A program made the position numbers and the translations under genes. 42,176 bases of DNA from a virus (lineage: Duplodnaviria; Caudoviricetes): positions 1 to 42,176 of IMG/VR virus record IMGVR_UViG_3300017747_002841; one strand, 5' to 3'. The notes below the pieces were generated by a model, which was not told where the DNA came from, ran no database searches, and worked only from the letters and a program-made list of their open reading frames with translations. Shown here one piece after another: positions 1,727 through 42,176 of the stretch (within the stretch, counting starts at the first letter, position 1; every line of letters begins with the position of its first letter).

Positions 1727-1903
1727 ATGATCACCCGAACACGGCGCATCTGTCCGAATTGTAAATCCCGCCGCGTGATCAAAGGCAAGCGACTATGCGA
1801 CGATTGCCGCATCAGTCGTGTTATCGCGCGACAGGAAAAGCTTTTGCCTTCAACATCTCCGCCGCCTTCTTCGCCGTCGCCTTGCGCGCCTCCCGCGCCT
1901 TGA
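1727..1903 (+). CDS. Small Cys-rich (CxxC...CxxC) hypothetical protein
   Basis: ATG at 1727 just after the preceding gene; CPNC and CDDC motifs. Its 3' end overlaps the convergent giant gene. Confidence 0.4.
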   Translation: MITRTRRICPNCKSRRVIKGKRLCDDCRISRVIARQEKLLPSTSPPPSSPSPCAPPAP

Positions 1904-4900
1904 CGTATTGGCCGCGCTGTTCCTCCGTCAGACCGCGCCAAAACTCCTTCTCGCGCGCCTGCTGGCCCGTGAACGGTGCCGCCGCCACGCGCTTGTAATG
2001 GTCGAACACCTGCCGCGGCGTCTTCTTCAAAAGCAATTCATCGAGCGCCTTGCGCGCCTCCGTGTTATTCCCGATGCGAAGCGCCTTGTTCAGCTCGTCA
2101 AAGTCGCCCGTGAAGAATTCCGCACTCGGCACGATGCCCTTTTCCCGGTTGAACTCCCGCGCCAGATTCCGGATCCGCTGCTCCGCCGTCGGCGCCTGAT
2201 CCGTCTTCACGCCGAAACTGGCCATCATCTGCTTTTGATACTGCCCCGGAAACCGTTCGCTAGGCTCGCCGCTGATCAGTTGCTTCGCCGCCGTCGCTGG
2301 CGACACCGCGCCGATCGGAATCGGAATCAACGCCTTGGCCATCGCCGGCAACACCTCGCCATCGCGCAGCTTTGCCCCGAGCGCATCCTTGCGCGTCAGG
2401 AACATCTCCGCCGGCCGCGCCGCCGCGTGAAGCCTGCTCACCGCCACGCGCCGCAACGCCTCGCTCAAGTCCCCGCCACTGCGATGCAAATTGCCCTCGA
2501 TCAAGTGCGTGTATTCCATCGGCAACGCCAGCGGATTCAGGAAGAACCCCGGCCCGCCGCTCACTGCGTCCGGAATGTAGGCGCTGATCTTCTTGTCCCA
2601 GCCCTCCTCCTCGTTCTCCCACGTCGGTTTGCCGCGAAATGCGTAGTTGAGAATCTGATTGGCCAGGAACGTCCCCAGCGCCATCGCGCCCGTCGCCCTC
2701 ATCAGCGTGCCGACCACCAAGCGCCGTTGCTGAATGCTTTCCATCGGCGTCTTGAGCGTCTGCACGATCGCGCCCAGCTCCGCGCGGATCAACGATTCAT
2801 TCCACTGCGGCGCGAGGAAGACGAACCGCGCCAGGTCCTGCGCCGTGCGACTCTTGAACAGTCCTTGCCGGTTCAGATTGCCGAAGCGCGCATTGAGATC
2901 CTTGCTGACGCGCCGCGCCACCTGTTCCTCGCTCGCGTTTGGAAGGGCCCGGCTCATGCGCTCGAACTCGATCAGCCACGCCTCCGTCATCGCGCCGCGT
3001 TGATACTGCCCAAACAGCCAGTGATTGAACGTGCCGACCACCGGCAGATTGTGCAGCGCATCGCCCCAGGCATTGTCCAGCACGTTGCCGACGTTGAACC
3101 CCGTGCGCAGCGCCAGATCCAGCCGACGCTTGTTCTCCTGCAAACCATCCGCCCACGCCTCCGGAATTTCCCCGCGCGCCGCCATCTCGCGAATGTCCGC
3201 CGCGGAGAAGTCCAGGAGCGTCTGCCCTTTCTGATACCCGCCGCCCAGCCCGAACATCTGCCGCCAAGCCACCATGCGCCCGAGGTGAAACGTGTCGAAC
3301 ATCAGCAAGCTCGACTTAATGAACCCGAAGACTTTCTTGGCCGATGACCCTTTGAAGAAGCTCGCCGCCGTCAGTTTGTTGAGCAACCCCACGAAATTCT
3401 CCTGCACCGCCACCTCCAGTTCGCCGAAGCGCCAGACCGTGTAACCTTCCGGCGCGATAGTCACCCAATCCGGCTTGTAGGTAATGCCCGCCTCGTCTTG
3501 AGCCTGCGCGCGCTCGCTGTCCTCCGCCGGAAGATTCGCCGGCTTGCGCGGTTTCTTGATCACGTCCACCACCACCGGCATGTCAGTCGCCGGATCCATC
3601 AGATTGCGCAGCCCATGCACCCACGCCAGTTCGTTCAGCTTCCGTTGACCGCCCGCCACGCGATCCGCCAACAGCTCGAGCGCGTTCAACGTCGTCGGTT
3701 TGCGCCCTTGCGCGATACCTTCCGCATACGTCGCCACGGAACGCGGCTTGCGGAATGGCGTCCCTGCCGCCGCCGGCTTGGTCGGATCCGCGCCTGCGCC
3801 CACGTCATCGCGCGCCCAGGAGTGTTTCACATAGCCGCCCTTCCACTCCGGAGAATTCACGCCCTCGTTCAATTCCGCCTCGCGCTCCGTCTCCGTCAGC
3901 GTCTTGTATTCCGCCGCCGCCGGCTGGAGTTTGTCCCAATTCGCCGCCGCGTACTCGAGTGCCGCCAGCGCCTGCCGCCCGGCCTTGGTGTCCGCGTGTT
4001 CGCTTGCGCTGATCTGATCGTAAAAGTCGGACAACCTCGACCGTTCGCCGTCCGCCTCGACCACGAACGTCAACGCCGCCTCGCGCCCCTCATGCTTGAC
4101 GCGCACCTGACCCGGCTTCGTGTCAAAGGCACGATTGAGAATCAACCGCACGCGCAAGCTAGCCGCGTTCGCCGCCTGATTGGCGCGATTATCCGCCACG
4201 TCCCGGTTGACGACCGTAGTTTCCCGCGCGCCACGGCGCGCCAGCCAGTTGCCGGACTTCACGCGCCACGCGCCCAAGCCCGTGAACAAGTCCTTGAGCC
4301 GCCCGCCCGGCAACCGCTCCGCGCCATTCCATTGCGGAATTCCCCGGAGCTCCCTTCCTGACTCCTGACTTCTGGCTCCTGACTCCTCAAGGTTGTCATC
4401 AACCTTGACGCGCCCCGCGCCGCTGTTGGCGCGCCCGCTACGGATTTCATCGCCAAGCGTGTCCACCAGCTCCTTGTATTCGTCCAGCATCGCCGCCGGG
4501 ATTTCCTCCCCGCGTTCCTTGAAAGCGTCCATTTCCGCGCCCAGAGCGTTGATCTGCCGGCGTAGTGACGTCGCCACGTCATCCACCGCCTGTCCGTCCA
4601 GCCATTCCTTTGCCTCCGTCTCATCGAAGCCGGGAATGTTTTGACCGCGAAGCCACTCGATACCGTCTTGCACTGCGTTGGCGATGCTCTTGCCGGCGCG
4701 ATACGCCGCGCGCACGACTTGCAGGACGCCACGCGCCGCCGCCCGCGTCAGCCAGACCGGCGCGCCCGTCACGCCCTCATACAACGCGCCCGGCTTCAAT
4801 CCAAGCTTCTCGATCCACTCCGTCAATTGCGCATCCACCGGATCGCGGCCCACCACCTTCACCGCCTTAAACAGCTTGTCGAACGCCTCCGCCACCGGCT

Positions 4901-7900
4901 TCATTTCAGAATCCAACAGGTACGGGTAACGCCCCTCGTCCCGTGCGAAATCCTCCACGCCCACCACGTTTGCCAGGTAATCATTGTGATACCCGGCATC
5001 CTTCATTTTCGTGATCAGATAGTTTTCAAAGGACCGCGCCGCCCGCTCGATGATTCTCGACCAGTAGCCACCGGATTTCCCGGCGTCAATCAACTGCGCC
5101 CGCTTGGCCATTGGCGAGGCGTCCAGCGCCCGCACCAATTCAGCAAACGCGCTCGCCACCTCCGGCCGCACCCCTTCGACGCGTTTCCAGTCGCCAGGCG
5201 TGCGGATGCCCCGCCGCGTGCTCAGTTCGTTGAACCGTGTTTCCGACAATTTGAAGCCCTGACTGTTCTCGTAATACGTTTCCGGCTGATACGTGATGAA
5301 TCGCCCTTCCCGATCCCCGGACGCGCCTCGATGACGTTGGAAATAATTATCCAGCGCGTGAAACCATTCATGACCGAGACTGCCCGCGCCCCGCGTCTTC
5401 GTCAGGTTGATCACGAATGTTCCCGGCTCAAAGTGCGCCGATGCCCACCCATGCCCGCGGGAGCCAAGCCCCAGGCCAAGCTCGCCATTGAGCGAAATGG
5501 AATTCGACGGCACACCCACGATCGCCGCCAGATCCATCAAGCCGTCATACGCCGCGTTCAGCATCCCCTGCCGCTCTTTGAGGTTCTTGCCCTGCGATAC
5601 CCAATTGCCAAACTCCACCCCACGGAAGCCAAACGTCTCCATGAACATTTCCGGCGTAGCGTCGCGCCCTTGTCGATGGTCGGCGCCGGCCCGTTCCCGG
5701 TTCGCTTCCCGGCGCACGTCCGTTTCCTTGACGTTATCCGTCTCCTTGACGCCCTCCCACGCCTGCAAAAGCTCGCCGTAATTATCCGGATTTCGGGCAA
5801 AATCGAGCGCCTCCTTGGCCGTCGGAAACGTCTTCAACTTGCGCACCAGCGGATCACCCTCCTTGTTGATGAAATACCCACGTTCATCGCTTCCCCTCAC
5901 TTGAAAGCGCATTCGTTGCTCCGGCTCCGCGCTGGCCAGCAACGCCTTTACCTTCTCCGTGATTCCTTCCAGGCTCGAATCGCGAATGGTTTTGCCATCG
6001 ACCACCGCCACCGCCGAAGGACTTGGAATCTTCGCGTCGCCGGAATATCGGTAAGCGTCCGGAAACACTTCCACCTTCTCCACCCTGCCCCACTCGCTCC
6101 GCGGCACCTCGCGCAGCACCCGGATCTTGTTCACCAGTTGCTCCAGCTTGTAGCCATCCATCCGGCGCATCACCTCATCTGGCCCCTTCTCTTTCGTGAT
6201 CCGCATCAATTCCCGCACCAGCTTCACCCGTTCCACCCAGCGCGCCACCTTATAGCGTTGCCGCGGCTTGCTTGGAATCTCCTCGCGAACCGCGTGAGCA
6301 ATGGACGCCACCGCAATATCTTCGATCTCGTCCACCTCAGACTTTGGCCAGATTTCCGAAAACGATTTGGTTGCCAGCTCTTCGTCGGTAAAATCGCGGT
6401 TCAACGACGGCTGTAAATCTTTCCGCGCGCCCCCCAATTTCTGCCCGAAATCCTGCAAACCAGAAACCGGCGCCGCCACGGGCTCCGTCTTGGCCGCGCT
6501 GACGGTCGGCAAATCCTGTTGATGCTTGTCCAAAGCGGATTCCATTTGATCGCGCCGCAATGCTGCCTTCGCGGCGGAGACAGTTTCAAAATAACTGCGA
6601 CCACTCTTTGAACCAATGACTTGAAAGACATGCTTTCCTTGTCCTTTCGCCCGCTCGACGACTTTGAAGGATTCATCGCCCAATTCTCTGGCGTTATTAA
6701 GCGCGCCGGGATTCTGCTTCTCGAAGTCCAGTTGGGCGCGCGTTTTTGTCTGCGGCAGCTCCTGCTGATTCTTCTCCTTGAATTCCTTGGCCGCGCGTTC
6801 GGTTTCCTCGCGTTGACGCCGTTCCGCCTCGATGCGTTCGCCGCTCTGCGTCTGTTCGGAAAACAGGTTGAACGCGACATCTCCGCTCCCCAGCAAGTCG
6901 CCTTGCTTCTGCCCACTCTTGAGCGTCGGCGCCGCCGGCTTTGTTCCACCTTGTTCCACCGCCGTTTGGTCCGTTTCTGGCTTCTTTAGGCTATCACTGA
7001 TAGCCTCAAGCGTCGGGAAACTGTCCGCGCCCTCCTCCGCCACGCTCTGCCATTCCTCCGCGTAAATCGTGGTTCCGTCCTGGAGCACCTGCCGTCCGAA
7101 CCGCGTCCCGTCCTGCAACGTCACCTCGCCATCCGGCGACACCTCGACCACACGCACCGGCTCGCCATCGATGTTCAGCGTGTCGCCCACCTTCATCTCC
7201 GACACTGGCACACCCACCGCGCCCTTCTCGATGGACTGGCTGAAATCCGCGCTTTGTCGTTGCGACCCCGTCACGTTGGCCTCCACCCATTCCTTGAGTC
7301 TCGCCGCCAGCGCGCCGCGTTTGGCCGTATCGCTCAAGTCCACGTCCTTTGCGCCAATGGCCGCCGCCGCCTGCTTGCGCGCTTTGGCCAGCTCTTTCGA
7401 GCGCAGAATCTTGGCCTTGATGCTTCCCGTGCCGTGTCCCGTCTTCACGTTCACCGCGTCGTCATACAAGTGTTCCGGCGACGTCACCCAACCCGCCTGC
7501 ATGGCGTTTTCCAACACCAGCCGATCAAACTCCCGCGCGCCTTCCCGCGCCACCGCTGCCGCCGTCGGAGGTTTTGGCGGTTTAGCTGGCTTGACAGGCT
7601 GGACGGGAGGAACAGGTTCGACCGGCTTGGCCTGCGCCTGCATCGCCGCCTCTAAATCCACCACCGGCTTCACCTCCGGCACTTCCACATTTGCGACGGG
7701 ACTCCCCACATTTGCGGCCGGAATTTCCACCTTTGCGCTTTCCACCTCCACATTTGCGTTCCGGCGCGCCCGCATCCGGCGCAATGCCGCCGTAGCCCGT
7801 GCGTCGCCCATGCCTTCGAGCAATTCCAGTTCAAGGCGGCTCATCCCCTCGTAATTCTTGTCCGGATTCTGGACGGCCGCCTTCACCGCCTCATCGGTCT

Positions 7901-9176
7901 TGCGCTGGAATTCCACCGCGGCCCGCTGTTCCTCCGTCAACGCCGCCGGCACTTCCACCCGTTTCTCGACCACTACCGGATCACCCGCCACCGCGCCCGC
8001 CGGTTCCGGCTGCACCTTCGGCAACGCGCCCTTGAGCCGTTGACTCCCCGGCGCCTCCCCGCGCAGCACCGCCTGCAGCTCCGCCAAAGCATCCGCCGAC
8101 GTATCGGCCGGCGGTGCCGCCGGCTGACTCCTGACTTCTGGCTCCTGACTCCTTTCCTGCCCCTCCTCCGGCAACACCTCATAACCCCGCGATTCCCCGC
8201 GCAGATTGCTGAACACCTCACCCGGAGCCGTCGCCAGCTCGCCGATCGCTTCCGCCGCGATGTCCTTTGCGCTGATGTCCTGTCCGCTGGCCAGTTGCGC
8301 CGTCGCCTCACCCGCCGCGCCGCCCGCCATCTGCGCGCCCAGCTCCTTGCCCGTCGCCACCGCTACGCGCCCGACACCCTTACCCAGCGCCGGCTTGAGG
8401 AACTTGCCCGCCAAGCCCGCCGTCAAACCGTCAAAGAGCGCAATGGGAAAGCCCCGTTGCATGGCGAACGCCTTGGCCTGCTTCACCTTGGCCTCGTCCG
8501 AGAAGAACGCGCGCACCTGCTCCGGATCGGCCAGGTTGACGCCCTGCTCGTTGGCCGCTTCCAGGAAGGCATTCGCCGCCTCCACCGTAAACGATCCCGC
8601 GCCCGCACCCACCGCCGCGCCACCGGGACCAGCCGCCGCGCCGGCTGCCATGCCCGCCGCCATGCCGGTCGCCGCCTGTGGCAAGGATTCCGCGAAGATG
8701 TTCGCCGTGATCTCGACCGGATTGCGCGCGAACACCTGCCACCAATTGGAATTGTCCGCCTTGCTCCATTCCTGCATGGCCGCGCTTTGCGGGATCTGGT
8801 TTGCCCGCTGCGTCAGATCTCCGATGTTCTGAGCCGTGGCGATGTTCTGTTCCTTGGCCGGGCCCATCGCCGCCTTGAGCCGCGCCGCTGGCCCGAAGAG
8901 GCTTTCCACCTTGGCCGGATCCTCCGCGCTCATCAGTCCCTCCATGTAACGCGGATCCTCCATCGCGCCCACAAAGGCGCGCCGGCCCTGTCGGATGGTT
9001 GGCTTGTCGTCCTTGAATTGCAGCGCCTCAATCGACCGTTGCCCGGCCAGATTCCCGCGCTTGAAGCTGTTGGCGATGCCCTCCAGCGTCCCCGGCGTCT
9101 CTGCCGGTTCGTCGCCTAGAATCTCATACCCGCCCGGCGTGGCCGGCGCTTCGTCCTCCAGAATGTCGTAAGGCAT
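1821..9176 (-). CDS. Giant internal virion/ejection protein with large-polyvalent-protein (LPD1-like) and zincin-like HExxH region
   Basis: 2451 aa, last gene of the virion operon. Motifs DFGQKLGGARKD, FGFRGVEFGNW, INLTKTRGAGSLGHEWFHALD and YWSRIIERAARSFENY are typical of phage/plasmid large polyvalent proteins. Confidence 0.8.
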   Translation of the reverse strand: MPYDILEDEAPATPGGYEILGDEPAETPGTLEGIANSFKRGNLAGQRSIEALQFKDDKPTIRQGRRAFVGAMEDPRYMEGLMSAEDPAKVESLFGPAARLKAAMGPAKEQNIATAQNIGDLTQRANQIPQSAAMQEWSKADNSNWWQVFARNPVEITANIFAESLPQAATGMAAGMAAGAAAGPGGAAVGAGAGSFTVEAANAFLEAANEQGVNLADPEQVRAFFSDEAKVKQAKAFAMQRGFPIALFDGLTAGLAGKFLKPALGKGVGRVAVATGKELGAQMAGGAAGEATAQLASGQDISAKDIAAEAIGELATAPGEVFSNLRGESRGYEVLPEEGQERSQEPEVRSQPAAPPADTSADALAELQAVLRGEAPGSQRLKGALPKVQPEPAGAVAGDPVVVEKRVEVPAALTEEQRAAVEFQRKTDEAVKAAVQNPDKNYEGMSRLELELLEGMGDARATAALRRMRARRNANVEVESAKVEIPAANVGSPVANVEVPEVKPVVDLEAAMQAQAKPVEPVPPVQPVKPAKPPKPPTAAAVAREGAREFDRLVLENAMQAGWVTSPEHLYDDAVNVKTGHGTGSIKAKILRSKELAKARKQAAAAIGAKDVDLSDTAKRGALAARLKEWVEANVTGSQRQSADFSQSIEKGAVGVPVSEMKVGDTLNIDGEPVRVVEVSPDGEVTLQDGTRFGRQVLQDGTTIYAEEWQSVAEEGADSFPTLEAISDSLKKPETDQTAVEQGGTKPAAPTLKSGQKQGDLLGSGDVAFNLFSEQTQSGERIEAERRQREETERAAKEFKEKNQQELPQTKTRAQLDFEKQNPGALNNARELGDESFKVVERAKGQGKHVFQVIGSKSGRSYFETVSAAKAALRRDQMESALDKHQQDLPTVSAAKTEPVAAPVSGLQDFGQKLGGARKDLQPSLNRDFTDEELATKSFSEIWPKSEVDEIEDIAVASIAHAVREEIPSKPRQRYKVARWVERVKLVRELMRITKEKGPDEVMRRMDGYKLEQLVNKIRVLREVPRSEWGRVEKVEVFPDAYRYSGDAKIPSPSAVAVVDGKTIRDSSLEGITEKVKALLASAEPEQRMRFQVRGSDERGYFINKEGDPLVRKLKTFPTAKEALDFARNPDNYGELLQAWEGVKETDNVKETDVRREANRERAGADHRQGRDATPEMFMETFGFRGVEFGNWVSQGKNLKERQGMLNAAYDGLMDLAAIVGVPSNSISLNGELGLGLGSRGHGWASAHFEPGTFVINLTKTRGAGSLGHEWFHALDNYFQRHRGASGDREGRFITYQPETYYENSQGFKLSETRFNELSTRRGIRTPGDWKRVEGVRPEVASAFAELVRALDASPMAKRAQLIDAGKSGGYWSRIIERAARSFENYLITKMKDAGYHNDYLANVVGVEDFARDEGRYPYLLDSEMKPVAEAFDKLFKAVKVVGRDPVDAQLTEWIEKLGLKPGALYEGVTGAPVWLTRAAARGVLQVVRAAYRAGKSIANAVQDGIEWLRGQNIPGFDETEAKEWLDGQAVDDVATSLRRQINALGAEMDAFKERGEEIPAAMLDEYKELVDTLGDEIRSGRANSGAGRVKVDDNLEESGARSQESGRELRGIPQWNGAERLPGGRLKDLFTGLGAWRVKSGNWLARRGARETTVVNRDVADNRANQAANAASLRVRLILNRAFDTKPGQVRVKHEGREAALTFVVEADGERSRLSDFYDQISASEHADTKAGRQALAALEYAAANWDKLQPAAAEYKTLTETEREAELNEGVNSPEWKGGYVKHSWARDDVGAGADPTKPAAAGTPFRKPRSVATYAEGIAQGRKPTTLNALELLADRVAGGQRKLNELAWVHGLRNLMDPATDMPVVVDVIKKPRKPANLPAEDSERAQAQDEAGITYKPDWVTIAPEGYTVWRFGELEVAVQENFVGLLNKLTAASFFKGSSAKKVFGFIKSSLLMFDTFHLGRMVAWRQMFGLGGGYQKGQTLLDFSAADIREMAARGEIPEAWADGLQENKRRLDLALRTGFNVGNVLDNAWGDALHNLPVVGTFNHWLFGQYQRGAMTEAWLIEFERMSRALPNASEEQVARRVSKDLNARFGNLNRQGLFKSRTAQDLARFVFLAPQWNESLIRAELGAIVQTLKTPMESIQQRRLVVGTLMRATGAMALGTFLANQILNYAFRGKPTWENEEEGWDKKISAYIPDAVSGGPGFFLNPLALPMEYTHLIEGNLHRSGGDLSEALRRVAVSRLHAAARPAEMFLTRKDALGAKLRDGEVLPAMAKALIPIPIGAVSPATAAKQLISGEPSERFPGQYQKQMMASFGVKTDQAPTAEQRIRNLAREFNREKGIVPSAEFFTGDFDELNKALRIGNNTEARKALDELLLKKTPRQVFDHYKRVAAAPFTGQQAREKEFWRGLTEEQRGQYVKAREARKATAKKAAEMLKAKAFPVAR
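4358..4387. repeat. 30-bp heptamer-based repeat, copy 1
   Basis: CTGACTCCTGACTTCTGGCTCCTGACTCCT, identical to 8124-8153. Confidence 0.85.
8124..8153. repeat. 30-bp heptamer-based repeat, copy 2
   Basis: Identical to 4358-4387 but translated in a different frame of the same gene. Confidence 0.85.
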
Positions 9177-31181: not shown

Positions 31182-31225
31182 TTCTGTTCCTTTTTCTGAG
31201 TTTTTGAGTTCCGGCTAAAATCAGT

Positions 31226-32740
31226 TCACCCCGCATCAAACCCCCGCAACACATCCTCACTCACCGTCGGCTCCGCCCCCTGGTCCTCGCCAATGTAAGG
31301 CCCGAACGTGCTATAAGGATTCACCGCCCGCTCCTCGCCCCCGATGTTGATCGAATGCATCACAGGTAGGTTGCCCATCGCCCCCAGAATCACCTCCGCC
31401 CGGTCTGGCGACCGCTGCGGCCGTTGGTCCCGAGCCTGCCGCGCGAACAGATCGCGCTTCGACTCCACCCAGCGCAACCCGCTCGAATCATATTTGCCAA
31501 TCCGATCCACCAGTTGCCCCTTGAAATCCGTATCATCCGGAATGATGACGCGCCGCTGCTTGATCGCCTCCGTCCCGTTAAACCAGTTTTCGCTCTCCCG
31601 ATTCCGGAACTTGTCCGGCTCAAACGCCCGCGCGTTCGCGTGATACTCGAGGATCGGCCAGCCCGCCTCCTGGATGCGTTGCACCATCGGCTTGCCCATC
31701 CCGTCCGCGTCGCCTTCCACCTCTTCCGGACGCAGCCCTATCGAGCGCCGCAATCCCTCCAGCTTCGTAATGAACCGTCCCACCGCGCTCATGGTGTTCT
31801 TGTCCCGCCAAACGTCCTCGAACCAAGTCTTGTTCCCGCGCCGCACGCCGATGCTGTTCTCGTCCCCGCCCGCCGCGAAATCGAGCCGCACATGCCGATC
31901 CGTCCCCTTCTGCCCCGGCGGTTCATTCACGCAATCCGCGATCTCCGTCAGCCCGATCAGCGAATCCTGCACGAACGGCATGAACTTCGCGAAAAATGCC
32001 GATTGAATAAACGGATCCTGCAACCCCCGATCGTAATCCCCACCCCCGGCGCGCGTGATCACCCGCTTCATCTCCTCGCGGTCAATCCACGGGCAATCCT
32101 CCACCGTCATTTGAAACGTGTTCCAGAACTTCGCCTCCGTGCTTTGAGACTCGTAGAATTTGCCCATCGCAAACCCCGGCGAACTCAGCAACCCCATCCG
32201 CTGCGGCCGGCAACGATCCTCACCCGCCCGGATGATTCCATCCGCCACTGACTTGCATTCGTCGAAAAGCATCATCAGCGGCGTCTCTGGCGACCCGTGG
32301 AAACCCTCCGCCCGCCCCGCCTGACTCGCCGAGTAAGCCATGAAGTTCGGCACCCCGCCAATCTTGATCTCCGTGTCCTGGAATTCCCAACTCGCCGGGA
32401 ACTTGTGCGAATAACTCCGGAGCGCCGGCATTAGTTGATTCTTAATCTGCGCCCAGCTTCCACTGGTTGCCGTCACGCCCCCGTTCTCACCCCGCCGCGG
32501 GAACACCGTCAGGTGCCACAGAATCACCGCCGGCATGATCTTCGTCGTCTTGCCCGCCTCATTACAGCACACGAACGACACATGCGACCGCGTGGGCCCG
32601 AATGCGTTCACGATCGCCTCCTGCTTCACCGTCAGCGGAATCCCGAGCTTGAACCGCGCAAACCCCGCCGGCGTCGCCAGCGCCATCCGCACCTTCTCCG
32701 GCAAGCTCGACACCGCCACCCGTTTATCATCCTTAGCCAT
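31226..32740 (-). CDS. terL: Terminase large subunit
   Basis: Walker A NEAGKTT, Walker B LMMLFDE, coupling motif LSSP, RNase H-like LDFAAGGDE / DADGMG / SPDRAE. Confidence 0.9.
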   Translation of the reverse strand: MAKDDKRVAVSSLPEKVRMALATPAGFARFKLGIPLTVKQEAIVNAFGPTRSHVSFVCCNEAGKTTKIMPAVILWHLTVFPRRGENGGVTATSGSWAQIKNQLMPALRSYSHKFPASWEFQDTEIKIGGVPNFMAYSASQAGRAEGFHGSPETPLMMLFDECKSVADGIIRAGEDRCRPQRMGLLSSPGFAMGKFYESQSTEAKFWNTFQMTVEDCPWIDREEMKRVITRAGGGDYDRGLQDPFIQSAFFAKFMPFVQDSLIGLTEIADCVNEPPGQKGTDRHVRLDFAAGGDENSIGVRRGNKTWFEDVWRDKNTMSAVGRFITKLEGLRRSIGLRPEEVEGDADGMGKPMVQRIQEAGWPILEYHANARAFEPDKFRNRESENWFNGTEAIKQRRVIIPDDTDFKGQLVDRIGKYDSSGLRWVESKRDLFARQARDQRPQRSPDRAEVILGAMGNLPVMHSINIGGEERAVNPYSTFGPYIGEDQGAEPTVSEDVLRGFDAG

Positions 32741-33687
32741 CAGGCCATGACCTCCAGCGGACTCCGCACGCTCATGGCCTCTGCGTGCAAGTAACCCATC
32801 GTCGTCTCCAGCGACTTGTGCCCCATCGCCTGCTGAATCGCCCGCGGGTTCGTGCCTTGATTCAAGCAGTGCGTGGCGTAAGCGTGCCGCAACTCATGCG
32901 GCTTGATGTTCCCGCCGCTGGCCTGGCGAATCGCAAGCTGCACGTTCGCCTCGTGCAACCGATACCGCACCAACTCACCCGTGCGCGGATGTTCACACGC
33001 CGCCTTCTGCGGAAACACCCACGCCCATTTCCACGCGAACCGGCTTTGCGGATACTTCTTGCCCAGCAAGCCCGGCAATTGCAGCGGCAGTCCGTTGGCC
33101 ACGTCCCGCTTCCAAGTCACCTTCGCCGCTTCCATCGCATCGCGCAGACCAGCGTGCAGCGAGCACGGCAACGGAACGACGCGATCCTTGCCGCCCTTCG
33201 CCCCACGAATGACGAGGCGCTGATTCTGCAACTCCACATCCTTCACGCGCAGATTGCACGGCTCCGTCACGCGGAGACCGCACCCGTAAATCAGATGCGT
33301 GATCAGTCGCGTAGGATAGCCATGCACATCTTTAACCGCGGCCAGCAACGCACGCACCTCTTCCCGGCTGGGAGCCTCGCGCAACGTCACCGGCTTGTTG
33401 GCCCGCAACGCATCAATCCGCGCCAGTGGTTGTCCCACGATCTCGCGATAAAACATCACCAGCGCATTGAACGCCTGATTCTGCGTCGAAGCCGAAACAT
33501 CCTGCCGCGCCAACTGCGACAAGAACGCCTCCACCTTTTGCTCGCCCGTCATCCCCGCCACAGGCTCGCCGGCCAGAAAGCGCATGTACCGCGCCAGCCA
33601 CGCCAGATAACTCTGCTCCGTGGACAGCGCAAAATGCTTTAACCGCATGTAACCACGGAACTTGTCGAATGCTTGGCTTGGTTTCAT
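32740..33687 (-). CDS. intI: Integron integrase (IntI-type tyrosine recombinase)
   Basis: N-terminal MRLKHFALSTEQSYLAW...VSASTQNQAFNAL; YGCGLR, KGGKDR, HELRH, MGH...TTMGY; the integron-specific insertion LPGLLGKKYP...WKWAWVFP...HPRTG is present. Confidence 0.92.
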   Translation of the reverse strand: MKPSQAFDKFRGYMRLKHFALSTEQSYLAWLARYMRFLAGEPVAGMTGEQKVEAFLSQLARQDVSASTQNQAFNALVMFYREIVGQPLARIDALRANKPVTLREAPSREEVRALLAAVKDVHGYPTRLITHLIYGCGLRVTEPCNLRVKDVELQNQRLVIRGAKGGKDRVVPLPCSLHAGLRDAMEAAKVTWKRDVANGLPLQLPGLLGKKYPQSRFAWKWAWVFPQKAACEHPRTGELVRYRLHEANVQLAIRQASGGNIKPHELRHAYATHCLNQGTNPRAIQQAMGHKSLETTMGYLHAEAMSVRSPLEVMA

Positions 33688-33703
33688 ATAGCAATGAGCG
33701 GTT

Positions 33704-33722
33704 GTCTAATCACTTGTTAGAC
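33704..33722 (+). mobile_element. attI-like simple site (L box GTCTAAT, 5-bp spacer, R box GTTAGAC)
   Basis: Lies 16 bp upstream of the intI start; GTTAGAC is the exact complement of the R'' box (GTCTAAC) of the next attC. Confidence 0.7.
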
Positions 33723-33923
33723 ATTTTGGCCCACGAGTGCGGTTTCGAGCCTGTCCACTTGCTTTTCAAGGTCTTTGATTTTTGCCAGTAGTGCATCGGC
33801 TGGCTTTTCGAGCGCGGAGGCCATCACGACGACTTTTGTGGCCTGTTCGGATGCTGGGAGTTTTTCGATCTCTTGGCAGAGGTCGTAGATGTCTTTGTAT
33901 ATCGGATGAGCGAGTATGTTCAT
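33717..33923 (-). CDS. Cassette 1 ORF, 68-aa helical/coiled-coil hypothetical protein
   Basis: Fills the cassette exactly; its TAA stop lies inside the attI R box. Confidence 0.7.
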   Translation of the reverse strand: MNILAHPIYKDIYDLCQEIEKLPASEQATKVVVMASALEKPADALLAKIKDLEKQVDRLETALVGQNV

Positions 33924-34010
33924 AAATGTCTAACCATTCAGTGCAGGCAACGGCGGGTTGCGCTGCGGGTTTATTTCGAGCCGTCAGGTCCGCCGTGCCT
34001 GACTTCACCG
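33717..34010 (+). mobile_element. Integron gene cassette 1 (294 bp)
   Basis: Runs from G/TTAGAC to G/TTCGGC; the end boxes GTTAGACATTT and AAATGTCTAAC are perfect 11-bp complements. Confidence 0.8.
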
Positions 34011-34016
34011 TTCGGC
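33928..34016 (+). mobile_element. attC site 1 (89 bp)
   Basis: R'' GTCTAAC; left arm AGT(G)CAGGCA(A)CGGCGG pairs with right arm CCGCCGTGCCTGACT leaving two extrahelical bases; R' GTTCGGC. Confidence 0.88.
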
Positions 34017-34579
34017 TTCAAGAACGCGCACCAGTGCGTTTTCGCCTGCTTGCCGGTGCGGTGGCCGTAAAGCGGTTGCACTGGCGTCAGTGCCAGTATT
34101 TCGCGCAGCGGCACTTCGATTTCGTTCCACTTGAAGATGAGTGTGCCTTCGGGTTTCAGGACGCGGAAGCACTCCGCGAATCCGAGGCGCAGCATCTCGC
34201 GCCAGTCACCGCGCAGGACGCCATACTTTTTGAGCAGCCAGCTCGTATCCCCGTTCCGTTGGATGTGCGGCGGGTCGAAGATGACGTGCGCGAATGTGTT
34301 GTCATCGAACGGCAGGTCTGTGAAGTCGGCTACGATGTCAGGGTCTATCACGATTTCTCGCTCGCCATTCTTCACTGAGCAGTCAGCGGCCAGATGTTTC
34401 TCACGGCGCTTGTCGAGGTAGATTGCCTGCGGATTCTTGCGGTCGAACCAGAACATCCGAGACCCGCAGCACACGTCCAGCACTGAAGCCGAACCATGCG
34501 CTGCACGCGAACAGCCGCCCCGCTTCTCCGTTTCGGGAGTCGCGAGCGGCAGGACGGTTTGCGTGTCGGCGTGAGTCAT
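33971..34579 (-). CDS. Cassette 2 ORF, class I SAM-dependent (probably DNA amino-) methyltransferase
   Basis: VLDVCCGSRMFWFD (SAM binding), VIFDPPH (catalytic-like), ECFRVLKPEGTLIFKWNE; a family common in phages. Confidence 0.85.
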   Translation of the reverse strand: MTHADTQTVLPLATPETEKRGGCSRAAHGSASVLDVCCGSRMFWFDRKNPQAIYLDKRREKHLAADCSVKNGEREIVIDPDIVADFTDLPFDDNTFAHVIFDPPHIQRNGDTSWLLKKYGVLRGDWREMLRLGFAECFRVLKPEGTLIFKWNEIEVPLREILALTPVQPLYGHRTGKQAKTHWCAFLKPNGEVRHGGPDGSK

Positions 34580-34606
34580 TGTCGGCGGCTGTCGGTGAGC
34601 TTGTCG
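34011..34606 (+). mobile_element. Integron gene cassette 2 (596 bp)
   Basis: Starts GTTCGGCTTCA (34010), whose exact complement TGAAGCCGAAC (34484-34494) opens attC2. Confidence 0.8.
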
Positions 34607-34612
34607 TTCTCT
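34488..34612 (+). mobile_element. attC site 2 (125 bp)
   Basis: R'' GCCGAAC; left arm GCT(G)CAC(G)CGA(A)CAGCCGCC pairs with GGCGGCTGTCGGTGAGC leaving three extrahelical bases; R' GTTCTCT. Confidence 0.85.
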
Positions 34613-34613
34613 C

Positions 34614-34633
34614 TGAGTTTATGAGTTTCGGCT
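34614..34633. repeat. Dispersed 20-bp repeat TGAGTTTWTGAGTTYCGGCT (also at 17951, 31197 and 38904)
   Basis: Four same-strand copies, all at gene boundaries. Confidence 0.8.
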
Positions 34634-34637
34634 AAAA

Positions 34638-35120
34638 TCATTTCTTTTCCCCCACGTACATCGCCTTTGCCATCTTCTCCAACTCCGCCGCCTCCGCCAT
34701 CGTCAGCCCGCCGCTTTCCCCGTGGCTCTCCGCCGGCTTATGCACCTCCGTCTTGTTGAAATGCGGCTTGTAACGCCGCTCCAGCACCCAGGCGAACCCC
34801 GTCCACGGACGGATCCGCGTCTTCGTTACCCCATCCTTGTCCATCTCCGTCGCGCCCGCGGCATCGCGGTAAATAATCTCCTCACCGCCCTCCTTGATCG
34901 CCTTCAACGCCCGCGCCATATACCGCGCGTGTTTCAACAGCATGATCTCGCGGAAATCCTCGCGCCGACTCACCACCGGCCCAAACGTCGAAGCATTCAC
35001 ACCGACGAGCGCACACGCGTAATCCTGCGGAATCCCGTCCGCCATATACTCGCCCACCTCCTCGACAATCTGCCGCGTGATCTTCCGCGGACGCCCGCCC
35101 TTGGATTTCTTTTTGGTCAT
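34638..35120 (-). CDS. terS: Putative terminase small subunit
   Basis: GGRPRKIT start, HTH-like YACALVGVNASTF, WTGFAWVLERRY motif; would directly precede terL if the integron were removed. Confidence 0.65.
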   Translation of the reverse strand: MTKKKSKGGRPRKITRQIVEEVGEYMADGIPQDYACALVGVNASTFGPVVSRREDFREIMLLKHARYMARALKAIKEGGEEIIYRDAAGATEMDKDGVTKTRIRPWTGFAWVLERRYKPHFNKTEVHKPAESHGESGGLTMAEAAELEKMAKAMYVGEKK

Positions 35121-35923
35121 CGCGCCACCCTTCCCGCCGCACCCGTCCGGATCCGGCTCAAATAAACCTGGTTCGCATACCCCGGCAGATTCCGCACAAA
35201 CGGCCGGCGCGCCGCCGCCTCCTCAATCGCGAACACCACCAAGTCCGCGTTTTCCTTCACGCGCCGCTCCCACAACTCCGCCGCCCCTGGACGCAGCTCC
35301 GTCAGATACTGCGCGATCATCGCCCGCGCCTGCGCTCCGTCCCCGGTCCCCTTCCGGATTCCGGAACTCACATGATCATGATTAAGGCATGTTCTTTCAG
35401 TGGCATGTTTCGGAACATGATCATGATCAGAACCATGATCGCGAGCCGTCCGGATTCCGGATGGGACTCGTCCGGATTCCGGATGCCCCTTTCCCGAATC
35501 CGGTAATGCCTCTCCCGATTCGGGAGAACCATCCACCGCCGCCCTCATGCGCCCGACCATGCTGCCCACCGCCGGCACCGCCAACGCCTCGCTCATGCTC
35601 ATGCTCTCCGTCGCCAGCGCCAGCCGCGCCGCCACAGATTTGCCCCGCCATGCTTCCAACCATGCTGCGCGCTCCATGCACTCCGTCACGCGCCAAAACT
35701 CCACCGGCTGCACCCGCACCACCATTCCCTCCACCGCCCGAGCCTCCAGCGTCACCCCGCCCAGGCGCTCACACTCCCGCATCGTCTCCAGCACATGATT
35801 GCGCGGAATGCCCGTGCGCGCCGACCACTCCGCCACCGACACCGGCCCGCCGTCTCGCAACGCCGCCACCAGCAACCGCAACGCCTGCGGACGCCACTTA
35901 AAGCGCAACAGCTCCGTAGTCAT
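35117..35923 (-). CDS. Putative replication initiator (N-terminal HTH, internal iterons)
   Basis: Probable ATG at 35923; wHTH-like SVAEWSARTGIPRNHVLETMRE; linker built on DNA repeats; C-terminal VRNLPGY motif. Confidence 0.6.
   Translation of the reverse strand: MTTELLRFKWRPQALRLLVAALRDGGPVSVAEWSARTGIPRNHVLETMRECERLGGVTLEARAVEGMVVRVQPVEFWRVTECMERAAWLEAWRGKSVAARLALATESMSMSEALAVPAVGSMVGRMRAAVDGSPESGEALPDSGKGHPESGRVPSGIRTARDHGSDHDHVPKHATERTCLNHDHVSSGIRKGTGDGAQARAMIAQYLTELRPGAAELWERRVKENADLVVFAIEEAAARRPFVRNLPGYANQVYLSRIRTGAAGRVAR
35353..35525. promoter_or_regulatory. Putative replication origin (iterons)
   Basis: TCCGGATTCCGGA-like palindromes at 35353, 35449, 35471, 35492 and 35513 (21-22 bp spacing); CATGATCATGAT at 35371 and 35416. 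Confidence 0.6.
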
Positions 35924-36269
35924 GCGATCCTTTCTCCCGTTCCAGCCACACCACCACCGGCTCAATATGCACCGTCGGCTTGGCCACCATCGAATTCGTA
36001 AACCGGAACACCCGCCACCCCAGGCGCGCCGCGGCATTATATTTCTCGCAATCCGCCGCAAACCCGAGCCCGCGCGTATGCCGCCCGCCCGTCCATTGTC
36101 CTCCCTCGATCTCGATCGCCACCCGGCGCGCCGGCAGCGCGAAGTCAAAGCGCCACTTCCGCGCCGGATCAAACCTCACCTCCGCCGTCAACTTCGGCCC
36201 GCCCAGCGCGCGCCAATAGTGCGCGAACGTCGCCGATAGCCTGCTATCGTTGGATTTCACGCGCCTCAT
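35898..36269 (-). CDS. PD-(D/E)XK endonuclease (Vsr/DUF559-like)
   Basis: EVRF...RKWRFDFA...VAIEIEGG...GRHTRG...DCEKYNAA..LGWRVFRFT. Confidence 0.85.
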   Translation of the reverse strand: MRRVKSNDSRLSATFAHYWRALGGPKLTAEVRFDPARKWRFDFALPARRVAIEIEGGQWTGGRHTRGLGFAADCEKYNAAARLGWRVFRFTNSMVAKPTVHIEPVVVWLEREKGSHDYGAVAL

Positions 36270-40264: not shown

Positions 40265-40861
40265 TCACGCCGCCACCTCCGCCTTCAGCTTCATCGCGCA
40301 CGGCGGACAAATGCCGTGACTCACCGCGCCCGTCGCGCCCGGCATCGGCAGATCCGCCCAAAGCCCGTCAACGCGCCACTGCTTGCACCAAGCGCACTGC
40401 ACTTGCAGCCCCACCTTTGCCGCCAGCCACTTCTCCGCATCCACGCCGAACACCACATCCCCGATCGGCACCTGCGACACATGCCCCGTCTCGGGATGCC
40501 GCACGGAAACCATCACCACGCGCGTCCGCTCATCGAGCCACGAGACAAGCGCCTCGTGCCACTCGCCCGGATGCTCCCCCGTTGTCTTCGGGATGCACCG
40601 GCTCGCAAGAGGAATGTTGAACGGCTCCGCGTTCATGCCGCCTCCACATCCCGCCGAATCAACCGGCGCACATACTTCGAGAAATCCAGATCCGGCTCGG
40701 ACTGAACCCGCGCCTCGACCTTCGGCCACATCGCCTTCAGCCAGCAACTTCGCCCGCTGGCAGCTTTGGCACACACGTTCCGAGTGTTTGCCGGGAAGCT
40801 CGAACTGCTTCCAACACACCTGGCACAGCGCCTCGTATCGGAATGTTTCAGTCCTGTTCAT
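40265..40861 (-). CDS. Hypothetical Cys-rich protein (alternative internal start at 40636)
   Basis: Both possible starts overlap the TGA of a repeat copy; CAWC...SHGICPPC C-terminal motif and CQVC/CQSC N-terminal motif. Confidence 0.55.
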   Translation of the reverse strand: MNRTETFRYEALCQVCWKQFELPGKHSERVCQSCQRAKLLAEGDVAEGRGAGSVRAGSGFLEVCAPVDSAGCGGGMNAEPFNIPLASRCIPKTTGEHPGEWHEALVSWLDERTRVVMVSVRHPETGHVSQVPIGDVVFGVDAEKWLAAKVGLQVQCAWCKQWRVDGLWADLPMPGATGAVSHGICPPCAMKLKAEVAA

Positions 40862-40960
40862 GCCGCCTCCACATCCCGCCGGATCAACCGGCGCACATAC
40901 TTGGAAAAATCCAGATCCGGCTCGGATAACACCCGCGCCTCGACCTTCGGCCACATCGCC
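40631..40960. repeat. 105-bp direct repeat (40631-40735 and 40856-40960), 225-bp period
   Basis: 98/105 identical by manual comparison. Confidence 0.9.
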
Positions 40961-41052
40961 GCCGGCATTGAAATCGACTTGGTAATGTTCGCCGGTTTCG
41001 CGGCTTTTTCTTCGGCTGGCTTCCGTGCGTTCTTCATTTCGCTCCGCATCAT
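40858..41052 (-). CDS. Ribbon-helix-helix (Arc/CopG-like) regulator, Cro-analogue
   Basis: TKSISMPAAMWPKVEARV...DFSKYVRRLIRRD beta-alpha-alpha pattern; first gene of the leftward operon. Confidence 0.75.
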   Translation of the reverse strand: MMRSEMKNARKPAEEKAAKPANITKSISMPAAMWPKVEARVLSEPDLDFSKYVRRLIRRDVEAA

Positions 41053-41148: not shown

Positions 41149-41379
41149 ATGGCCACCAATCCCAAAGGCGAGAACGAAACTAAGAGCGTCTCCATGCCTC
41201 CCGAACTCCTTGCCGCCGCTACCGAGCGCGCCAGCAAGCTCCGCATCTCCAACTTCTCCGCCTACGTCCGCAAGCTCATCGAGCAAGACCTGGCCACGCG
41301 AGGACACCTCATCTATGAGGAATCAGATCCCGCGCCAATGCCTCCCGCCAAGCCCGTCAACTACCGCAAACGCAAATGA
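41149..41379 (+). CDS. Ribbon-helix-helix regulator, repressor-analogue
   Basis: TKSVSMPPELLAAATERA...NFSAYVRKLIEQD; first gene of the integrase-containing operon. Confidence 0.78.
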   Translation: MATNPKGENETKSVSMPPELLAAATERASKLRISNFSAYVRKLIEQDLATRGHLIYEESDPAPMPPAKPVNYRKRK

Positions 41380-41941: not shown

Positions 41942-41981
41942 ATCCGTGCCCATCCGTGCCATCCGTGTCTGTCTGCATGAA

Positions 41982-42176
41982 ATGAAAGCCATCCGCGTCA
42001 AATCCGGTTCATCTGTCGTGCGCGTGTTCGCCTCGCGCTCCGGCAAATACACCCGCTTTGAACTGCGCTGGACCGATCACCACGGACGCCGCCGCCGCCT
42101 CAAGCGCAGCCAGCGCGCCGCCGCCCTTGCCGAAGCCAGGCGCCTCGCCGACGACCTCGCCCGCGGACACCACCAC
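41982..42176 (+). CDS. int: Phage integrase, N-terminal part (continues across the circular junction)
   Basis: ATG at 41982, MKAIRVKSGSSVVRVF...RFELRWTDHHGRRRR, is in frame with 1-1176 and resembles an arm-binding three-stranded domain. Confidence 0.85.
   Translation, partial: MKAIRVKSGSSVVRVFASRSGKYTRFELRWTDHHGRRRRLKRSQRAAALAEARRLADDLARGHHH
42054..42176. repeat. Terminal direct repeat, copy 2
   Basis: Identical to 1-123. Confidence 0.97.

Follow-up and report, generated by a model that had tools for sequence, protein, structure and literature searches.

Integrons are commonly regarded as bacterial devices with cassettes that are functional in one orientation only. In a typical cassette, the ORF lies on the attC site's top strand and is read from Pc near attI; recent work casts the integrons themselves as stores of anti-phage genes. 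In the accessible text of the papers compared here, only the canonical and the Treponema layouts are described (Ghaly 2022, PMC9668308; PMC4909258; PMC8876359; Nivina 2016, PMC5027507), and the opposite orientation of a cassette is treated as blocking expression (Nivina 2016, PMC5027507). In the reverse integrons of Treponema, as presented in the accessible text of PMC4909258 and PMC9668308, intI and the cassette genes are co-directional, with the integrase gene turned relative to the array. Phage integrons have been published as well: according to the accessible text of Qi 2023 (PMC9892861), integrons and CALINs are present in 21 phages, with attC arrays, orphan DNA methyltransferase cassettes and a proposed anti-restriction role that are all shared with the case described here, whereas the complete integrons of that study are host-derived or pieces of class 1 integrons. 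That text, compared without the figures, does not mention ORF inversion, and no description of inverted phage cassettes was found in a search of mainly open-access literature. The present case is a true integron by every feature that was tested, with a non-canonical expression layout.

The locus analyzed here resembles the Treponema integrons in that intI and the cassette genes are co-directional but is not a reverse integron of that type: attI is located at the 5' end of intI, intI and the attC sites have normal polarity, and it is the ORFs that are turned within the cassettes. With canonical integrons (mobile class 1 integrons and the sedentary chromosomal integrons of Vibrio, with IntI4, PDB 2A3V), it shares the IntI-specific insert, attI 5' of intI, attC hairpins with extrahelical bases, the attC polarity and insertion at attI. 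Unlike in canonical integrons, the ORFs are on the bottom strand and directed towards intI, instead of on the top strand pointing away from it; they start and stop inside attC sites, there is apparently no space between attI and intI for the integrase promoter (Pint), the crossover is frame-locked, and the newest cassette would be the last one in the transcript, adjoining intI. The window, that is, the entire record of 42,176 nt, carries a complete integron within a phage gene row; its junctions obey frame rules, and phages have exchanged entire cassettes at the crossover. It appears probable that the bottom-strand cassette genes belong to this gene row functionally, likely being expressed on one leftward phage transcript together with intI, and that IntI swaps genes of the anti-restriction type during phage replication.

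The integron platform and its phage genome

The features considered below are as follows (survey loci are denoted L with a number).

31226..32740, - strand: terminase large subunit-like gene (terL), flank of the array; sole match phrog_5902 (function unknown), E 9e-6
32740..33687, - strand: intI, integron integrase of 315 aa; its stop overlaps the terL-like start by one base
33690..33722, + strand: attI-like site with the crossover 33716/33717; its core box (33716-33722) is separated by 5 nt from an inverted box (33704-33710)
33717..34010, + strand: cassette 1, 294 bp, with complementary R boxes at both ends
33717..33923, - strand: 68-aa protein, function unknown; TAA stop within the R box at attI
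33928..34016, top strand +: attC1; crossover 34010/34011, two extrahelical bases, left arm
33971..34579, - strand: SAM-dependent methyltransferase; start inside attC2, crossover read as Asn, stop inside attC1
34011..34606, + strand: cassette 2, 596 bp, with complementary R boxes at both ends
34488..34612, top strand +: attC2; crossover 34606/34607, three extrahelical bases, left arm
34576..34641, - strand: 21-codon mini-ORF; ATGA overlaps with the terS stop and the methyltransferase start, Asn frame over the distal crossover
34638..35120, - strand: terminase small subunit (terS), flank of the array; phrog_4102, E 2e-11
41946-42176 joined to 1-1176, + strand: second tyrosine recombinase, spanning the terminal repeat and the genome ends; phrog_1, E 1e-14

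The 123-nt terminal repeat at the ends of the window implies that the genome was circularly assembled and represents a complete phage. The capsid, portal-like, tail and terS genes are on the - strand, which is also favoured by the G-over-C skew over the entire genome. Homologs of the terL-like gene precede the portal gene in four loci (L018, L037, L042 and L043); from this position and from ATPase and nuclease motifs, we take this gene to be terL. The second tyrosine recombinase, likely the lysogeny integrase, suggests that the phage is temperate and makes IntI dispensable for lysogeny. The nearest cellular IntIs are found mostly in Verrucomicrobiota bins. Elsewhere in the genome, two small divergent ORFs (40858-41052, - strand, and 41149-41379, + strand), which by eye look like ribbon-helix-helix regulators and have no family match, mark the sole switch in gene direction and are a possible lysis-lysogeny switch. 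The gene at 1821-9176 (- strand) encodes 2451 aa, including the large-polyvalent-protein domains LPD5 and LPD1, and the ORF at 40265-40954 involves a duplicated stretch of ~50-60 nt (40383-40985). An Rfam scan yielded no match.

IntI narrowly passes the TIGR02249 cut-off (266.6 bits against 265), its residues 8-310 align with IntI4 (PDB 2A3V, E 8e-44), including the IntI-specific insert, and the catalytic residues R139, K164, R267, H290 and Y299 are invariant across 51 homologs. Combined with an attI site 5' of intI and with attC boxes that have extrahelical bases, these features identify the locus as an integron; the intact intI next to the array sets it apart from CALINs, which are attC clusters without an adjoining IntI. 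The action of IntI on attI and attC via the folded bottom strand is predicted, and the ends of the cassette duplications discussed below fit this prediction. Among 50,697 GenBank phage records, only 3 contain IntI matches at E 1e-40, all with less than 35% identity. The candidate arrangement in which intI itself would be a cassette bounded by a second crossover was rejected: 36 of 90 close loci have an AAC directly behind intI, compared with a background of 39%. A relative detected in a public run (X2, record 11, corresponding to window positions 32580-33718) combines an identical terL-intI junction with a 749-nt internal deletion in intI.

The attI crossover is located 31 nt from the intI start codon. 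In relatives, attI is conserved upstream of intI, identity stops at the crossover, and the array content changes there. Across 33 loci of the IntI group, which were picked by pattern and by eye with near-duplicates and one doubtful site excluded, the distance between attI and intI is 29-71 nt (median 35), so that there is apparently no space for Pint between them. A sigma-70 scan of positions 32500-36000 detected no promoter, and none of four LexA box patterns occurs in the genome; host promoters may differ from those searched for.

Polarity of the attC sites and cassette exchange

The original prediction placed both attC sites in the canonical + orientation, pointing away from intI, and this placement agrees both with the extrahelical bases and with the scores of a rule-based detector (16.0 for attC1 and 14.5 for attC2 with the top strand +, compared to at most 9.5 and 8.5 with the top strand -). 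Over the whole 42 kb, the detector found one further site (13.0); when 20 Markov-shuffled genomes were scanned, a single site scoring 13.0 turned up in each of two of them. For TJE1_attC2, the detector polarity coincides with the top strand tested by Qi et al. Folding energy provided no discrimination, the z-scores being -1.8/-2.4 at attC1 and close to 0 at attC2. Of the two grounds originally given for the polarity, the extrahelical bases hold, whereas the order of R'' and R' does not, being symmetric. The complementarity of R boxes (pairing with the following site in 79 of 97 cases, but with their own site in just 7) indicates that the cassettes are real but was dropped as a proof of polarity owing to the same symmetry.

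This symmetric test would be compatible with a misread polarity, whereby this IntI family recombines the other strand and, judged by the strand in use, the cassettes have the normal orientation. Such a reading appears very unlikely. The polarity is fixed by the extrahelical bases, the attI geometry and the ends of two duplications. In L003 and L037, an internal cassette is duplicated at attI (254 bp with 99.6% identity and 368 bp with 100% identity, respectively), and both duplicates, read on the coding strand, begin and end at an AAC and have the attC body on their 5' side. This suggests that the coding strand is the one that recombines; no sign of the opposite recombinogenic strand, which would have refuted the original prediction, was seen. 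Furthermore, the interval that separates attI from the first ORF lacks an attC body in all of 30 loci, as do the 136 nt nearest to attI, and non-phage loci of the same IntI clade combine the same attC polarity with normally oriented ORFs. A cross-locus comparison asking which attC accompanies cassette bodies that loci have in common gave a weak signal, 11 versus 4 of 15 non-independent pairs with identities near background.

With the polarity read as canonical, the exchange of cassettes can be followed at the crossover points. Cassette 2 and its copy in L241 cease to be identical precisely at the attC1 crossover AAC, and the downstream integrase-like gene of L241 differs. Among the contigs of four public DNA runs, partners switch at or near 33718, 34009 and 34613, with the match of one contig, from run X5, starting at 34009. 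These breakpoints, too, are consistent with the coding strand being recombined. Judging by such breakpoints, cassettes are exchanged among phages as units bounded by AAC/GTT, and the duplications at attI show, as far as sequence comparison goes, that the recombinase has been active. In addition, attC1 is 95% identical over 87 bp (33926-34012) to an attC in L035 (7424-7510) that precedes an unrelated ORF. This copy bears on how cassettes acquire attC sites, and because one attC sits on unrelated ORFs, the way in which cassettes are made becomes testable.

Cassette genes and their junctions

Both cassette ORFs lie on the - strand, as had been predicted. The product of cassette 2 matches phrog_954 (DNA methyltransferase) with an E value of 2e-71, and the 68-aa protein of cassette 1 has 30 homologs besides itself among 32 candidates, with no family in Pfam, PHROG or NCBIfam and no Atlas match at 0.9 or above. 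The enzyme of cassette 2 is probably a DNA amino-methyltransferase, in view of its DPPH motif. Its structural model (pLDDT 83) has a class I methyltransferase fold; in a fold search, the best matches are RNA methyltransferases, followed by M.TaqI at E 9e-5, so the substrate is not fixed by the fold. The profile match and the predicted SAM-binding fold place this protein in phrog_954, with DNA methylation and protection from restriction as its predicted functions. The homologs of this methyltransferase are mostly found without attC: a site was detected in only 6 of 25 loci, one of them distant.

The long + strand frames, interpreted from the start as shadows of these genes, do not behave as conserved products. 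The frame at 33926-34378 has no family match in Pfam, PHROG and NCBIfam scans and is interrupted by stops in 6 of 9 close homologs. In the comparison with L241, it shows 3 synonymous and 36 non-synonymous changes against 33 and 6 in the - frame; change in the methyltransferase frame is at third positions and mostly synonymous.

The junctions between cassettes follow frame rules. Each would either combine the AA of the cassette with the C of its neighbour into an Asn codon or have the cassette end with TAA; in the former case, the stop would be supplied by the attC arm of the neighbour or by attI, often overlapping the next start. Among 123 junctions across the surveyed loci, 75 read through, 67 of these with the crossover AAC in the Asn frame (the background of in-frame AAC in long ORFs is 43%); of the remaining ones, 28 end at the crossover (TAA/C), 14 stop earlier and 6 lack an ORF. 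The read-through stops lie inside the attC of the neighbour in 71 of 75 cases, and stop and start overlap as ATGA in 25 of 69 pairs. In the window, attI provides an in-frame stop two codons past the crossover on the - strand; an attI stop in the Asn frame is present in 31 of 33 loci, compared with 11 and 12 for the other frames. The Asn frame is likewise closed by a stop in most viral attC arms, 95 of 116 (62 and 60 for the other frames), whereas for bacterial arms, the corresponding count is 12 of 30 (17 and 13). Because the crossover is at the 3' end of each gene, the junctions seem to be built to work with any neighbour.

At the distal end of the array, the 21-codon mini-ORF is predicted to be a translation relay from terS to the methyltransferase. 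L002 has a similar mini-ORF of 16 codons, in which the frame is held despite a 3-nt length difference ahead of the crossover; this element is found only in the window and L002, two related loci. Its role would be like that of ORF-11 of attI1 in class 1 integrons, presumably a short platform-encoded ORF that brings ribosomes over the crossover into the cassette; the mini-ORF of the window differs in its distal location, in its placement on the bottom strand and in its coupling to terS. An intergenic motif of 30-40 nt is found after terL and after terS (31182-31222 and 34601-34653), with the distal crossover at the motif end. The L002 contig has several copies of this motif and an integron that is bordered by it on both sides; most of the others among the 28 matches look like chance.

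Cassette orientation across loci and its possible causes

The comparison of phage and host arrays that was called for by the original prediction covered 240 intI loci, with ORF direction taken crudely as that of the longest ATG ORF and attC sites identified by a home-made detector. Upstream of intI, 204 of 207 attC sites have normal polarity. Among 131 viral cassettes (a site was found in 46 of 80 viral loci, with three duplicate loci retained), 108 are inverted, 21 normal and 2 undecided, as opposed to 3 inverted and 24 normal among 27 cassettes of cellular genomes with IntIs of less than 45% identity. Inverted cassettes account for 8 of 14 in cellular genomes with close IntIs and for 12 of 32 in metagenome loci. 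The idea of a distinct phage-type cassette architecture is thus supported by the survey as well as by the frame rules of the junctions and the short gap between attI and intI.

The cargo is distributed in the same manner. Matches to PHROGs, a collection that favours phage genes, were obtained for 34 of 117 ORFs on the intI strand and for 3 of 91 on the opposite strand; the latter three are all in L062 and L065, bacterial-looking integrons, to which the 2 of 91 Pfam matches also belong in a search restricted to the opposite-strand set. Among the 34 annotated cargo genes, 21 are DNA-modification genes, namely 17 DNA methyltransferases, 2 Mom-like and 2 PAPS-reductase genes. This cargo fits an anti-restriction role, and related phages likely trade DNA-methylation genes through cassettes.

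The 21 viral cassettes called normal are counter-evidence to a phage rule. L062 and L065 are viral contigs with QacE-type and Mrr cassettes in ordinary bacterial-type integrons of normal orientation, whereas L027 has mixed orientation with a family match on neither strand. The published array of phage TJE1 is normal, so inversion is not universal in phages. In P12002L, attC2 and the gene upstream of it share one strand. The enzyme of MW202573 (sequence from Table S4 of Qi 2023) belongs to the same family as the methyltransferase of the window, and the MW202573 array (L306, 2050-3760) looks inverted at two sites (detector scores 13.5 and 11.5); a figure in Qi 2023 may therefore show this layout without comment.

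In a quick IntI tree of 78 rows, in which one outgroup fell inside the ingroup, a 49-row clade (SH-aLRT 99) contains the window and most of the inverted arrays; further inverted arrays are found in other branches (L048/L051/L114, L069/L072/L074, L050 and L061). Within this clade, ordinary bacterial genes in the normal orientation make up the cassettes of the non-phage-looking loci L164, L189, L210 and L220; the same holds for L095 and L224, which have close IntIs and are outside the tree. Given that one IntI clade has ordinary cassettes at non-phage loci, orientation is tied to the replicon to a greater extent than to the enzyme. The presence of the same clade in cellular contigs with ordinary cassettes could also be taken to mean that the phage passively took up a fragment of a host integron, with bacterial cargo inverted by chance and unused by the phage, all the more so as captured pieces of chromosomal integrons are described in the accessible text of Qi 2023 (PMC9892861) and the position of the platform differs between related phages. 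Indeed, in L018, terS and terL are adjacent with the integron upstream of them, and in L001-L003, the platform is in replication-gene regions; an exact-pattern search for an empty terS-terL site in a close relative found no terL locus, and only the distant L018 has terS beside terL. Passive capture is nevertheless already largely refuted and seems highly improbable, considering the phage-type cargo, the different arrays of phages with 89-94% identical IntIs, the duplications at attI, the normal orientation of cellular arrays and the coupling of intI to its neighbours.

The preferred explanation is that the layout reconciles the integron with phage transcription. In a normal integron, intI and the cassettes would diverge, and a one-way phage operon would express both only with one of them flipped; the flipped part here is the ORFs relative to attC. 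One leftward transcript would then serve terS, the cassettes, intI and terL, and translation would be handed on via overlaps that may prevent ribosomes from stalling at the hairpins. Synthesis of IntI would depend on the lytic transcript rather than on an SOS-type promoter and would take place in lytic growth, when replicating single strands would be plentiful. Recombination would involve the non-template strand, which, if the genes run with the fork, would also be the lagging-strand template, so that folding could be favoured.

This last point could itself be the main driver: the architecture would be real, with the recombination rate selecting for a recombining strand on the lagging-strand template or the non-template strand, and co-expression would be secondary. 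The accessible text of Loot 2017 (PMC5371416) reports that the bottom strand recombines more often when it is the lagging-strand template; the uniform skew of the window genome fits leftward replication, the direction of the fork being assumed. We consider this an unlikely primary cause because the frame lock, the ATGA overlaps, the attI stop and the relay mini-ORF are translation features; the two explanations are mutually compatible.

Extending the co-expression explanation, which we consider likely, to phages in general gives a picture to which we would assign somewhat less than an even chance. Phages might keep an integron economy of their own, a mirror-image, frame-locked cassette pool that phage IntI shuffles while the phage grows lytically, the progeny of a single burst thus differing in their DNA-modification genes. 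Several IntI lineages would have adopted this pool, which might be exchangeable with bacterial integrons although the cassettes of each side would be silent on the other, and the IntI clade would switch pools between phage and chromosome. The phage version, with the recombination chemistry kept, the gene logic reversed and mostly DNA-modification cargo, would then be the same machine on the other side of the arms race. It can now be tested whether the expression context, and not IntI, dictates the orientation of cassette genes; surveys that assume top-strand ORFs may misread a part of the environmental cassette pool.

Six loci (L005, L006, L017, L040, L174 and L189) additionally have attC sites of the same polarity downstream of intI, suggesting that intI can sit within a larger array. 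In Virus Rctr41k (L304, KX853513, 4680-10639), an IntI-like gene is accompanied by two downstream attC-like sites with the top strand opposite to the annotated genes.
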